Shown piece after piece: positions 1 through 7,865 of a stretch of 19,002 nucleotides of DNA. The notes under the pieces were generated by a model that saw only the letters and a list, made by a program, of their open reading frames with translations, was not told where the DNA came from and searched no databases. The stretch lies in contig JBCCXZ010000065.1 in assembly GCA_039190745.1 (NCBI GenBank), positions 1-19,002 on the forward strand, read 5' to 3'. Source of the DNA: Planctomycetota bacterium (lineage in GTDB: Bacteria > Planctomycetota > Planctomycetia > Pirellulales > Lacipirellulaceae). The first letter of the stretch is position 1; the number at the start of each line of letters is the position of its first letter. The translations under genes and the position numbers were made by a program.

Positions 1-158
1 CCCGGCTTTGATGCCCTCCCCGGCTTTGATGCCCCACCCGGCTTTGATGCCCTCCCCGGCTTCGATGCCCTCCCCGGCTTTGATGCCCCACCCGGCTTCG
101 ATGCCCGACCCGGCTTCGATGCCCTCCCCGGCTTCGATGCCCGACCCGGCTTCGATGC
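1..158. repeat. 18-bp tandem repeat (CCCGGCTT[T/C]GATGCC + CTC/CCA/CGA), at least 8 full units plus a partial one; continues off the window
   Basis: Units start at 1, 19, 37, 55, 73, 91, 109, 127 and (partial) 145. They encode the hexapeptide repeat on the minus strand. Confidence 0.97.
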
Positions 159-309
159 TGATCCGACCGGCAGCAACAAGGCGTGGCACCTTAAGCCAGC
201 CAAGATCGCCGTCGACTTCAATGTGCCCCCTTGCAGTCAGGAGCGATTCGTCGGCGGTAAAGTTGCCGTTGCCGTCGAAGTGCTCTTTGGTCAGTCGCGT
301 TGTTTCCAT
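1..309 (-). CDS. Hexapeptide-repeat (GI[EK]AG[ESW]) protein, probably phage/mobile-element encoded; 3' end runs off the window
   Basis: Manual translation from ATG at 309-307: METTRLTKEHFDGNGNFTADESLLTARGHIEVDGDLGWLKVPRLVAAGRISIEAG-SGIEAG-EGIEAG-SGIEAG-WGIKAG-EGIEAG-EGIKAG-WGIKAG-EGIKAG. It is open for 103 codons to the window edge and lies inside the att-bounded segment. It is absent from the ORF track because it has no stop codon in the window. Confidence 0.8.
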   Translation of the reverse strand, partial: METTRLTKEHFDGNGNFTADESLLTARGHIEVDGDLGWLKVPRLVAAGRISIEAGSGIEAGEGIEAGSGIEAGWGIKAGEGIEAGEGIKAGWGIKAGEGIKAG

Positions 310-323
310 TTCGCGTCGCCCAC

Positions 324-414
324 AAAAAAACGCCGCCCGAGGTGCCAACCCCAGCCATCCTGCCGAAGCGGGATTGCTTGTGCTGCGTGGTGGGGCTGGC
401 ACGCCGGGCGGCGT
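324..414 (-). terminator. Intrinsic terminator-like stem plus U7, 14 nt upstream of the ATG at 309
   Basis: GC-rich stem base (ACGCCGCCCG/CGGGCGGCGU) running directly into UUUUUUU on the minus strand. Confidence 0.6.
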
Positions 415-442
415 GGTTCAATCAAGTTGTCTCACGCAGCAC
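324..442 (-). ncRNA. Structured leader RNA / putative attenuator upstream of the hexapeptide-repeat gene
   Basis: Arms 391-414 and 330-353 form a 24-position stem with 23 pairs on the minus-strand RNA, including two G-U wobbles that would be A-C mismatches on the plus strand. A U7 tract follows (330-324). The loop contains AUCC-C-GC-UUCG-GC-A-GGAU. The 10-mer at 433-442 is exactly complementary to 380-389. Confidence 0.65.
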
Positions 443-486
443 GGGGGTGAGATTAAGTCGATCGCAGAAGTCCTACGAAACGGTCC

Positions 487-798: not shown

Positions 799-854
799 TG
801 ACTCGAAATCAGGTGCCGGGTAACCGGTTGAGGGTTCGAGTCCCTTGCCCTCCG
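799..854 (+). pseudogene. 3' half of tRNA-Ser(CGA) (tRNA fragment, att core)
   Basis: Anticodon loop CTCGAAA at 802-808 (anticodon CGA) with 3' stem strand TCAGG, long variable arm CCGG-GTAA-CCGG, T-arm GAGGG-TTCGAGT-CCCTT, acceptor 3' strand GCCCTCC and discriminator G. Upstream of 799 there is no matching GGAGGG 5' end or D-arm, and only 3 bp of the anticodon stem can form. Confidence 0.88.
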
Positions 855-1265
855 CTTCTCTTTTCTTAGTGGGCCCGCGTCTTGGGTTTTGTCGGCCCCG
901 CCTGGGGCCCCCGCGGACGGAAGTCGCCGGGCCGTGCTTGTATTGCAGGGTTTGCCTGGTTCTTTTGGCCCGAGAACGCGAACACGCGGCGATATGCCAA
1001 AAGTCGGGCGTTTTGTCGCGTCCGATTTCCTCTCTGGGCGGGTTTTCCAGGCTCGGGGCTGCATGGGTGCGGTCTTAACTTTTCGAGTTTACGTCCAATG
1101 GAGGCAGCGCTGGGGGTGAATTGCTGATCTGGCGGGTAGCAAGCCTCATGTTTAAGGATGGCTATGGCCCTGAACCGCACAGACCATGAATACATACGTT
1201 TGTACACTATTCTGCGGCCGCTTTCAACAACGCGTTCCGATGCTGGATAAGCGGCTTTGTTTGCG

Positions 1266-2444: not shown

Positions 2445-4331
2445 TCAACCCTCGTCCTGCGTTTGGTCCTTGGCGACAAGCGGGAGCCCTTCGATCGAAG
2501 CCCACTCGTACTCTCGGACTTGGAATCGGAAGTGGTCGACGCGGTCGAGGGACAGGTTTGGGAACCTCACGGTGCTCATGGTGATCTGGCCGGCGCTGTT
2601 GCCGCCGCGGCCCTGCTGCTGGTGCAACTCGCCCGAGCGGTCGATCGCGACGACCCGGCAGTCTTGCTGGGAGTAGTTGTGCGAGACGACCAGATACAGT
2701 CCGCTGCCGTCGGGCCGCGCCTCGGAAAACAGGACGCCTTTGCCCGAGAGCAGGCCAACGGCGGCCTGATGACCGCGGTTTTCGACAATGGTTTCCCACT
2801 CTCCTGCGGCCAGGCCGACTCTAAGGCCTACGGTTTCCAGGCCGGCTCTGGGCCGAAAAGCGCGAGTAGCGTATTCGCCCGGGCGGTCGTCTCCCGGGAC
2901 CTCGACTTTGGCTCCACCCTGCGACACGCCGGCACCCAGGATGTGCCACCGGAAGCTGGCTCCTTCTGGCAGGCCGCTGGTGTGAAGAATCACTCTCCGC
3001 GTCGTGCGCGGCGTTGTGGAACCCCTTTCTCGCTGTTTCCAAACGAAGCGTGACCCGTCTAACGAGTTGCCGAGCGGGCCCCACCAACGCTCGGGCTGCT
3101 GATCGATGGCGCCTATTGCTACCGCCTCGACAACTGTTCCGGAAGAAAACTCGACCGTGGGCTTCGAGTCTGTTGCGGGGATCTGGATCGGTGTTGTGGA
3201 GGTCGGGTTCGGGTCGGGGTTGTCGGCGCGGCTGGGCCAAACGGCGGGTCCGGCAAGGAACAGCACGACGATGAGGGTCGCGACGGTCGGACGCAGCGGC
3301 AGGCAGACCGGTTCCACGACCGGCTCGCCGCAGAGACGCGCTATGCGGCGCCGGAGTTCCGAAGGCGACCGCCCGCTGGCGGCGAGGGCAAGCACGTTGA
3401 CCCGGGCTGAGCCCACTGGTTTGGAGAGTTCTGCGATTCTCAGCAAAGCGGCGGCATAGCGGACCGCGACCGGTTCGGGGTCCTTCTGGGTTTGACGGCA
3501 CGCGATATCGTCGCAGCAGTATTCACGGAGCCTGTCGATGCGGCGACTGAGCAGCCAGAGGGCGGGGTTGAAGAACAGCACGGCCTCGGCGAGGCGCTGC
3601 ACCAGGTTCACCCACAGGTCCCAACGTACGCCATGCGCTAACTCGTGCCTCAGGATCAATTCCAGGTCGTCCGCGGAGAGGCGTGCGATGGTCGCGGCGG
3701 GGAGGACGATCACGGGGCGCACCAAGCCGATGAGCTGCGGCACGACTGCTTCCCTACTGACGACGAGTGCCGGCGTGGCAGAGACCGCTAGCCGCTTGCT
3801 AATCGCTGCCAGACGTTCCGGCAGCTCGCCCGAGACCAGCGGCATTGCGCGTCGCACGATCCGTCGAGCACGAGAGACTCCTAAGCCGAGCCGGGCGAGC
3901 ATGGCGGCCACGCCTAGGCCGTACAAAACGGCCACCCAAAGCGTGGACCAACCCTTAGGTCGCGGGGCGTGCGGCGGCTCTGGAACGGCAAGTGCGGGAG
4001 TGTCTGTTACTGCGGCGCTGTGCTGTTGCGGACCTGCCGCGGCCTTCTCGGAGCCCGGCCCTGCGTTTGTTGCACCACCGGTGAGAGCGGCCACCGGGGT
4101 CGAAACAGCGGCTTTGGGCGGGATCTGCACGAGGAGAAACGTCGCGCACGTCACCAGGATACCGGCGAAGAGAGCGACTACGTTGATTCGATACGACTGC
4201 GCCGGCGACTGCCGCAGGCGGCCGACCATCCAGCTCAAGCACGCGAGCAGGGTGAACTGCCACAAGGAGTGCCCCAAGGTCAGGCAGAGGCGGTCGCAAA
4301 AGATTGAGTCGACGGGGACGAACGCGTTCAT
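2445..4331 (-). CDS. BlaR1/MecR1-like M56 family membrane metallopeptidase with a non-penicillin-binding C-terminal domain
   Basis: TLGHSLWQ N-terminal motif, transmembrane segments, PQLIGLVRPVIVLP, HELAH zinc motif and FFNPALW...REYCCD. Overlaps the blaI-like stop codon (ATGA coupling). Confidence 0.92.
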   Translation of the reverse strand: MNAFVPVDSIFCDRLCLTLGHSLWQFTLLACLSWMVGRLRQSPAQSYRINVVALFAGILVTCATFLLVQIPPKAAVSTPVAALTGGATNAGPGSEKAAAGPQQHSAAVTDTPALAVPEPPHAPRPKGWSTLWVAVLYGLGVAAMLARLGLGVSRARRIVRRAMPLVSGELPERLAAISKRLAVSATPALVVSREAVVPQLIGLVRPVIVLPAATIARLSADDLELILRHELAHGVRWDLWVNLVQRLAEAVLFFNPALWLLSRRIDRLREYCCDDIACRQTQKDPEPVAVRYAAALLRIAELSKPVGSARVNVLALAASGRSPSELRRRIARLCGEPVVEPVCLPLRPTVATLIVVLFLAGPAVWPSRADNPDPNPTSTTPIQIPATDSKPTVEFSSGTVVEAVAIGAIDQQPERWWGPLGNSLDGSRFVWKQRERGSTTPRTTRRVILHTSGLPEGASFRWHILGAGVSQGGAKVEVPGDDRPGEYATRAFRPRAGLETVGLRVGLAAGEWETIVENRGHQAAVGLLSGKGVLFSEARPDGSGLYLVVSHNYSQQDCRVVAIDRSGELHQQQGRGGNSAGQITMSTVRFPNLSLDRVDHFRFQVREYEWASIEGLPLVAKDQTQDEG

Positions 4332-6569: not shown

Positions 6570-7865
6570 ATGCGTGGCCACATTGTTTACTTTGCTCGAC
6601 GCCCGAACGACCTCGACCACGTTGTGCCGGTGCTCTGGAACTGGCTCGAACGCGGGGCCGGTCGGGTCGACGTGGTGCCGATCGGCAACCCATCGCTTGC
6701 TCAGGACCCGCGTCTGCGGTTCCTGGAACGCTTCGAGGCGGTGAAGGTCTGGGGCCTGGGCGACTTGGTCTCCCGAGAGTTGTACCGTCCTTACGAGCGG
6801 TACTGGCAAACCCGGCCGAGCCTGACGCCCTCGAAGCTGAAGCGTGCTTGGAACCGGCACGTGGTCCGGCCCCCGAAGGATTATGGCACAATCCTCGGCA
6901 CGCTCGCCGAGCCTTTGCTGCGGAAGTTCGCGGACAAAGCGAATCGGAGCACTGTCCTGCTCGACTGGGCCTGCGACGGGGACGATCGGCTGCATTTCGA
7001 TAACGTCCTGCACAGTCTCAAGGACTCTATGGGCTTCACCACCGTGGCGATGCCGCATGGGGACGAGCCGCACCATACGGCCCTGGGGATGACGGGGCTG
7101 CACGCGGTGGACCCAGCACGGGCGTGCGTGAGCTACAAGAACTGCGGTCGGTTCGACTACGTCGTCGCGCCGAATGAGCCCTGCGCAACCCGGTTTCGCG
7201 GCCACGTGCCAGACTCGCGATTAAAAGTGCTTGGCTCAGCACGCTTCAGTCGGGCCTGGGTGGCCTCTGGGGCCTCTGAGGTCTTCGGTGAGCAGTCGCA
7301 AGAGAACGTCGGCCGGCCGTTCGTCGTGATGTTCTTGAGGGACCTCGGGTACCCAGTTTTCTGGGAGGAAGTGCTCCGCACCTTCGATTTGCTTTCGCAC
7401 TCCGGCGCACGGTTGATCGTTCAACGGCACCTGACAGACAACGCGAGCCGGAAGATGGACCGCATGTACCCGGGGCTGCGGCTCGGCGACCACGGCTCGT
7501 ACGCTGTGACGGCCGACCCGGCCGCCTCGGGCTGGCTCGCGAGCCACGCCGCGGCGGTCATCGACCTGGGGACGAGCATCTGTTTTGAGAGCGTCCGCCT
7601 CGGCGTGCCGGTGATCTCGCCGGAGTATCTGCACGCGACGCACACGTGGGTTTCGCTCCTGATGCCGAGCACCCGGGCGTACGATCGTTGCGGCCTGCTT
7701 GAAGCGGTCCAGAAGGCGGTGGCCGCGCCGGGCGCCCCCAACTACAGCCCCGAAGAACGCCGCACCTTCGTCGAGACAATGCTCGACGTTCCTGACGAGC
7801 ACGTCCTTGAACGGCATACTGAATTTTTGCTCCGCTCAGTTCAACAACGGCAATCGGCGGCTTAG
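6570..7865 (+). CDS. Hypothetical protein, probable GT-B-fold glycosyl/ulosonyl transferase (TagF- or sialyltransferase-like)
   Basis: 431-aa ORF from ATG 6570. NDLDHVVP, MPHG, KVLGSARF and TSICFESVRLGVPVIS resemble GT-B sugar transferases. Lies directly upstream of the kdsB-like gene. The function is an inference. Confidence 0.7.
   Translation: MRGHIVYFARRPNDLDHVVPVLWNWLERGAGRVDVVPIGNPSLAQDPRLRFLERFEAVKVWGLGDLVSRELYRPYERYWQTRPSLTPSKLKRAWNRHVVRPPKDYGTILGTLAEPLLRKFADKANRSTVLLDWACDGDDRLHFDNVLHSLKDSMGFTTVAMPHGDEPHHTALGMTGLHAVDPARACVSYKNCGRFDYVVAPNEPCATRFRGHVPDSRLKVLGSARFSRAWVASGASEVFGEQSQENVGRPFVVMFLRDLGYPVFWEEVLRTFDLLSHSGARLIVQRHLTDNASRKMDRMYPGLRLGDHGSYAVTADPAASGWLASHAAAVIDLGTSICFESVRLGVPVISPEYLHATHTWVSLLMPSTRAYDRCGLLEAVQKAVAAPGAPNYSPEERRTFVETMLDVPDEHVLERHTEFLLRSVQQRQSAA

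Follow-up and report, generated by a model that had tools for sequence, protein, structure and literature searches.

Inside one end of an integrated, prophage-like element of a planctomycete, we found a leader whose predicted 5' end is exactly complementary to the head of a long hairpin further along the same transcript. The same arrangement, written in other letters, was found at seven further loci of integrase-related elements. The leader is real, conserved and covarying, and it is very probably an RNA switch of some kind; it would represent an apparently undescribed variant of RNA-based phage immunity or attenuation. We propose that it acts as a two-box antisense-RNA switch, in which pairing in cis would let the early genes through and accumulated stalk RNA would force the stalk on new transcripts; we give this proposal an even chance of being correct.

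The window, which here means the whole 19,002-nt stretch of DNA analysed, is the start of contig C65, and a repeat at its positions 1-158 overlaps the end of contig C103. The leader is located on the minus strand. A putative -10 hexamer, TAATCT (450..455), lies 7 nt ahead of the first base of the 5' target GTGCTGCGTG (433..442), which would form +1 to +10 of the transcript. It is followed by the left arm of a 24-position stalk (391..414), the anti-target CACGCAGCAC in the stalk head (380..389), an inner hairpin (357..374) capped by cUUCGg (368-363), the right arm of the stalk (330..353) and a U7 tract (324..330), which is the predicted intrinsic termination site and whose first U also closes the stem. 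The two arms (414-391 with 353-330) pair over 24 positions with two G-U pairs and one C-C mismatch. The 3' strand of the inner hairpin overlaps the motif CAGGAUG (362-356), a putative CsrA-type site. The ATG of the first early-operon gene, which encodes an IEAGxG-repeat protein (1..309, minus strand, running on into C103), is at position 309, 14 nt after U7, and the terminated RNA is predicted to be about 120 nt long. A previous sequence-only reading had claimed the hexamer, the decamer, both arms, the loop complement, the cUUCGg cap, U7 and the ATG; on re-check, all of them were found where it had placed them, and the claimed exact complement between GTGCTGCGTG (442-433) and CACGCAGCAC (389-380) held at 100%.

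The minus-strand region 310-445 folds with an energy of -68.6 kcal/mol (z = -3.8), and none of 200 shuffled sequences was equally stable. Hairpins with a cUUCGg-type tetraloop are stable in themselves. Generic sigma-70 and terminator scans of the window listed neither the promoter nor the terminator of the leader, because a -35 match is absent and the loop is oversized for the terminator scan. Within the 3.89-Mb host genome, an upstream complement of at least 8 nt to the loop was found in one of 80 long hairpins, namely the window leader, the others reaching 7 nt at most. Similarly, 14 of 17,565 TAnnnT sites had a 10-nt complement of the +1/+2 sequence within +30 to +90, and a scanner for the whole layout gave 71 matches in the 3.89 Mb, with a score of at least 50 and at least 10 nt of complement only in the window leader.

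The leader is placed at the head of an operon by its surroundings. The att core (attR, 799..856, plus strand) is a 58-bp perfect copy of the 3' part of tRNA-Ser(CGA), with 100% identity over 58 nt to C4:114936-114993, and both the full copy of this tRNA and the integrase are on contig C4. Beside the tRNA there are the integrase gene, a small gene that is xis-like by position and a gene with a LexA DNA-binding domain. On contig C103 the genes, all on the leader's strand, encode an SNF2 helicase, a Pam3 gp33-like protein, a primase, a UvrD-like helicase, a VRR-NUC protein and a CsrA-like protein; the gene between those for the Pam3 gp33-like protein and the primase is presumably SSB-like, a label assigned from its position. 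This layout of C4, C103 and att puts the leader at the start of the early/replication operon, some 350 nt inward of attR. Four GGTGACC/GGTCACC repeats (487-493, 631-637, 677-683 and 689-695) are probable integrase arm-type sites, judging from the sequence; two further copies occur at attL, and such repeats also come after the att fragment in the homologous locus G226. A repressor gene is absent from the window between att and the leader. The sequence-only reading spoke of a prophage end. Neither terminase nor portal was found in the 95%-complete host assembly, and its one capsid gene lies elsewhere, so we call the element prophage-like; its middle is unassembled and falls in a gap between contigs.

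The only capsid gene of the host assembly lies in a separate small element on contig C14. This element of about 10 kb (G000:C14:36385-46433) carries integrase-like, capsid, HNH-like and helicase-like genes (all labels except capsid by eye or BLAST), and it looks like a PICI-type satellite from its gene content; terminase and portal had no match in the G000 genome. On C103 (L022, about 3156-3978, minus strand) the Prim-Pol/PriCT primase is split across two frames, while its homologue in locus L194 is a single ORF of 496 aa; the element may be defective, or the split may be an assembly error. Just outside attR (window 959-1098) lies a palindromic repeat that is scattered over the host genome in dozens of diverged copies.

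Homologues of the leader were sought through proteins and position, because the search by nucleotide sequence failed. The window and seven loci of integrase-related elements share the layout of TAnnnT, 7 nt, a 5' target of 8-13 nt and a long stalk with the complement in its head. Seven different codes are present over these eight loci, each matched by its own complement and one of them with a G-U pair, and the members share almost no primary sequence. L194 (G417, a Bythopirellula MAG contig) has the closest helicase among the genome records (58%), and the same layout with a different 11-nt pair was spotted in it by eye. Its leader folds with z = -6.3, and it ranked with the window as the top two among 538 terminator-like candidates in 169 loci. 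G026:C2, reached via its integrase, is an element of 51.6 kb in tRNA-Ser with a 9-nt pair, a stalk of 25-26 positions and a cUUCGg hairpin, the stalk having no U-tract after it; G026:C1 is a second element in the same genome with the identical code. G031, at the true attR of a related integrase, has a 10-11-nt pair and no U-tract. G226 (integrase 64% identical), again spotted by eye, shows a 13-nt pair including one G-U, a bulged stalk, cUUCGg and U5. The viral contigs L689 and L696 have, respectively, a perfect 13-nt pair starting at +1 with U7, and an 8-nt pair with a GAAA inner hairpin and a U-tract. Conservation of the target/anti-target pair, which had been set in advance as the point on which the sequence-only reading could fail, was thus observed at seven further loci by full exchange of the sequence.

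The position of the leader is also constant. Between the att fragment or integrase end and the predicted +1 there are 274-448 nt, except in L696, where the distance to the integrase end is about 890 nt. In L689, L696 and G226 the order integrase, tRNA (att) fragment, leader and gene is directly visible, as predicted for an excised circle. The leader precedes the first early gene, with replication genes downstream in the window element, L194 and G026. The first genes themselves differ and encode the IEAGxG-repeat protein, small HTH-like proteins, an HNH-like protein or unknown proteins (HTH and HNH labels by eye).

As the members were counted by the complement, the occurrence of an 8-13-nt complement in 8/8 loci is no independent test; such a test is offered by L194, G026:C2 and G226, since proteins had led us to these loci before we noticed the feature. 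Of 25 integrase-related elements, three are large and have both att ends, and all three contain the leader. Another 14 are small (7-24 kb) and had no strict match, and for the remaining eight the second att end was absent from the fetched DNA. Two of 25 viral integrase loci were members; the energy scan covered 21 of these 25, two without downstream DNA and two near-duplicates having been left out. Applied to 64 regions, the energy scanner evaluated 710 sites and matched 10 regions, missing L696, and its false-hit rate in the host genome was 589 of 62,886 sites, or 182 under stricter limits.

Direct searches for the leader were negative. A nucleotide search of 61 relatives gave tRNA matches only, and BLAST and nhmmer against 273 loci found no homologue. 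The exact decamer pair had three matches in viral contigs, all of them simple hairpins without the leader layout. A pattern built from the first two members and run on 401 genomes matched at about the control level, with a complement longer than 7 nt in 0 of 109 other matches, and a second pattern was uninformative. A single-sequence covariance model of the leader did not recover L194, MAFFT did not bring four members into register, and the output of a loose U-tract scanner was mostly noise. Searches with the first genes gave nothing beyond the second G026 copy. The leader was absent from the helicase relatives L114, L195, L220, L274 and L297, and in three of these five, small HTH-like genes (by eye) were found upstream instead.

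Several candidates were dropped. G361b2, L552 and L592 were weak matches and were rejected because they fall within the false-hit rate of the energy scanner, and L536 was judged to be a host REP-like palindrome that is not at an att end. L259 and L026 have a similar layout with a -10 spacing that does not match. The similar target/stalk/anti-target layouts at L259:8019, which in a Sedimentisphaerales MAG is some 1.5 kb away from a tRNA-Gly, and at L026:4838, ahead of a gene start in an AT-rich phage, may be analogues outside the integrase-related group. In the 9.9-kb satellite-like element of G361:C2 (L643), about 350 nt inside the att end, an 8-nt 5' complement was observed together with a stalk that holds the Shine-Dalgarno sequence and start codon of the first gene; it is possibly a translational form of the switch, as a candidate within the false-hit rate.

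In the window, in L194 and in both G026 copies, exactly 7 nt separate the hexamer TAnnnT from the first paired base. With TAnnnT/C the equal spacing is seen in 8/8 loci, where the 7-nt spacing guided the search or the choice of +1 in L689, G226, L696 and G031. The two G026 copies are identical from the predicted +1 on, and upstream of it only the hexamer is kept, its inner letters differing between the copies. The members showed no conserved -35. From this conserved spacing we infer that transcription starts at the first base of the target. These covarying codes and the folding computations given below support the sequence-only reading, in which a two-state, RNA-level switch sits at the end of the element and the predicted transcript begins with the decamer.

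The decamers could instead be a DNA inverted repeat, that is, half-sites of an operator for the LexA-domain protein or a cruciform, beside an ordinary terminator. The perfect Watson-Crick pair in six of the seven codes and the LexA DNA-binding-domain gene in three elements would suit this explanation. However, the G226 pair contains a G-U, the two sites are spaced anywhere from about 34 to 54 nt apart and have no common half-site consensus, and one arm invariably begins at the predicted +1 to +4 while the other is invariably in a hairpin head. We regard the DNA reading as highly improbable. The integrase gene offers another explanation. Retro-regulation of an integrase transcript is the function of sib in phage lambda, and since the circular order points the integrase gene through att into the leader, the stalk could terminate or retro-regulate the integrase transcript crossing attP in the excised circle, with the decamer pair being incidental. 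This is very unlikely in our judgement, as it leaves unexplained why the 5' target covaries, why the -10 is conserved at 7 nt and why the G026 copies are identical from +1.

The proposed two-box switch would hold the element's early (replication) operon off while the element is integrated. From a promoter just inward of the att site, the transcript would start with the first base of the target. As soon as the anti-target is made in a naive cell, it would pair in cis with the 5' target, and the helix would enclose the left arm and delay the stalk. Our computations, which are equilibrium foldings of growing prefixes and not kinetics, gave the target helix, for 7/7 codes, a probability of about 1.0 once the anti-target is present; when the right arm has been made in part, this falls to about 0. 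In four members, the left arm can form a self-hairpin of 4-6 bp inside the target helix (6 bp at 400..415 in the window), which is a candidate anti-stalk; it is suggestive only, the shuffle fractions being 0.07-0.22 and none significant alone. In G026 and G031 the helix and the full 24-26-position stalk would be mutually exclusive by geometry, because the spacers are only 7-8 nt.

Through the delay of the stalk, some transcripts could reach the early genes. The claim of the sequence-only reading that cis pairing favours read-through needs qualifying: the target helix forms first in the computation, but at equilibrium the closed (stalk) form, with an advantage of 10-16 kcal/mol over the open form, overtakes it before the U-tract, which counts against the two-box switch. 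A kinetic trap or a factor is therefore required for read-through. Transcripts in which the stalk folds would stop at the U-tract or, where there is none, be cut or silenced, and would leave a stable stalk RNA of 85-99 nt displaying the anti-target. New transcripts, whose own anti-target is made 45-65 nt later, could be captured by this RNA at their free 5' end, and the cis helix would then be blocked and the new transcript committed to the stalk. The outcome would be a protein-free negative feedback and a code-specific immunity against elements with the same code.

Several results are in favour of this two-box switch, in addition to the seven codes each matched by its own complement and the fixed position near the att/integrase end ahead of the first early gene. 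Cognate duplexes were computed at -13.5 to -27.6 kcal/mol versus -0.7 to -10.8 kcal/mol for non-cognate ones, and in the 7 x 7 matrix the cognate beat every non-cognate in each row (narrowest in L696, -13.5 versus -9.9). Unfolding the stalk RNA at the anti-target takes 1-6 kcal/mol, and net trans binding was computed at -11 to -14 kcal/mol in five loci. The G-U pair in the 13-bp helix of G226 points to RNA, as does the UUCG hairpin of G026, in which a G-U pair of one copy is a G-C pair in the other; the identity of the two copies begins at the predicted +1.

On the trans action of the stalk RNA, and with it immunity, our judgement is evenly balanced. Divergent codes are not proof of it, because the stalk sequences have diverged equally. 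The two co-resident G026 elements would be homoimmune because their codes are identical in target and anti-target, yet both are integrated; they may have integrated silently, as their integrases and att sites differ. An unprocessed terminated RNA would retain its own target and might titrate itself, and the LexA DNA-binding-domain gene near the integrase could supply protein repression instead. A third box downstream of the leader was not found, the best duplex being no better than shuffles (fractions 0.37-0.54 in five loci, namely the window, L194, both G026 copies and G031), and three elements contained no conserved second target elsewhere.

All the structural evidence would fit equally well with a cis-only attenuator, in which one transcript can fold either into the target helix or into the stalk, the choice being set by transcription speed or by a protein (e.g., the element's CsrA-like one at GGA) without any RNA in trans. 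The same code in two co-resident elements would then need no explaining. Judged by the consensus of CsrA sites, the leaders of both elements with a CsrA-like gene contain a GGA motif, which is CAGGAUG in the window and an AGGA-loop hairpin in G026, but no such motif was seen in the L194 (G417) leader, and CsrA had no match in L194. The members also show no ligand-like conserved sequence, sharing nearly no primary sequence, and the stable tetraloop hairpins (UUCG in G026 and G226, GAAA in L696) and the exposed anti-target in the terminated RNA suit an RNA that persists. We consider the cis-only explanation unlikely.

The stalk had been read as a terminator, and this would fit five of the seven distinct leaders, where a U-tract directly follows the stalk, but not G026 and G031, so that the stalk is not always an intrinsic terminator; this also weakens the two-box proposal as a general account. 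The same switch might have its main output in processing or translation, the two-turn stalk being an RNase III substrate or a Rho trigger that severs or destabilises the early mRNA and frees the head RNA. The host encodes both RNase III and Rho, the leaders without a U-tract have stalks of 24-26 positions, and the U-run further downstream in G026 differs between its two copies. Against this stand the five leaders with a U-tract right behind the stalk and the computed accessibility of the start-codon region, which differs little between the two states in 4/5 loci. Such an output appears quite improbable to us.

The P4 CI-like logic suggested by the sequence-only reading is a fair analogy for the two-box switch. 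The CI RNA of satellite phage P4 arises by processing of an untranslated leader and terminates transcription by pairing with two sites, seqA on its upstream side and seqC on its downstream side (PMC4825925), and relatives of CI and seqA are detected by the Rfam models C4 and isrK (PMC10111431). P4 serves as the precedent for the two-box switch, since both involve a small structured leader RNA of a replication operon that is complementary to an upstream site in its own transcript (in 8/8 of our loci, where this is also the membership criterion), with premature termination proposed. Unlike P4 CI, our leader has no seqC-like site, its target is the extreme 5' end, and the 16-26-bp stalk itself is the predicted intrinsic terminator in 5/7 leaders; in addition, it is not inside a Bro/eta gene, and its hosts are large planctomycete integrative elements. 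Rfam found no family over the window at the gathering score, C4 and isrK being absent up to an E-value of 10 in the window region and seven homologous loci, and the best C4 hit in the whole host genome was at another site (E 0.55). No named Rfam family thus matches the leader, in agreement with the sequence-only reading, and we did not file it as a member of P4 CI or P1 C4 because it matches no Rfam model and has no seqC-like downstream target.

The c4 RNA of P1/P7 blocks translation of an antirepressor and is the basis of heteroimmunity (PMC12197685), and the c4 motif is listed for Proteobacteria and phages (PMC2864571). Our leader resembles c4 (RF01695) in its loop-displayed antisense, and a phage-specific code could likewise give heteroimmunity. 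It differs from c4, whose target is described as near the antirepressor RBS, since no anti-target site near a start codon was found, the first genes vary, RF01695 was unmatched, and pairing of the anti-target downstream, as in the c4-type RBS target of an antirepressor operon, gave nothing significant. With IsrK/STnc1160 of Gifsy-1 (PMC4825925) it shares a short leader RNA, alternative folds and a terminated isoform that acts in trans (proposed here); IsrK activates downstream translation in trans, whereas repression is proposed for our leader, and the isrK model was unmatched. In the open-access literature, the scope of our search, we found no planctomycete case of such an RNA switch and nothing on the maintenance of lysogeny in planctomycete prophages.

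A wider reading is that this is an independently evolved minimal immunity, in which a leader of about 120 nt would be terminator, repressor RNA and operator at once, and the 8-13-nt code would set the immunity groups of planctomycete prophages, replacing a protein repressor as an exchangeable module. We offer it tentatively, as possible but somewhat doubtful; if true, it would provide a portable, programmable set of orthogonal attenuators. The findings suggest that RNA-coded immunity, known from the coliphages P4 and P1, may have arisen more than once and be invisible to Rfam because the members share structure and almost no sequence. The leader also offers a concrete, testable switch with seven natural orthogonal codes and, if the trans action is true, a two-box design that is simpler than that of P4 and usable as an RNA-controlled terminator.

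Some further observations concern the elements themselves. The L194 element is 32 kb long and flanked by two tRNA-Lys copies (G417:C141:47353-79356). It contains HNH and large terminase genes followed immediately by genes for unknown proteins of 306, 693, 139 and 351 aa; a recognised capsid or portal was not found in the G417 genome, and the element is either a deleted prophage or an unusual satellite. The three large elements G417, G026:C1 and G026:C2 each bring a tRNA-Met(CAT) gene with them. On the sense strand of the integrase gene (L021:3480-3500) the anti-target decamer recurs as a perfect copy, which was not seen in the other two elements checked and is probably due to chance. Finally, a second GC-rich hairpin with a U-rich tail lies ahead of the SNF2 gene on C103 (L022, about 6700-6770, minus strand), and the next 18 nt nearly match the 3' end of the leader; together they may reflect processive antitermination or a duplicated translation signal.
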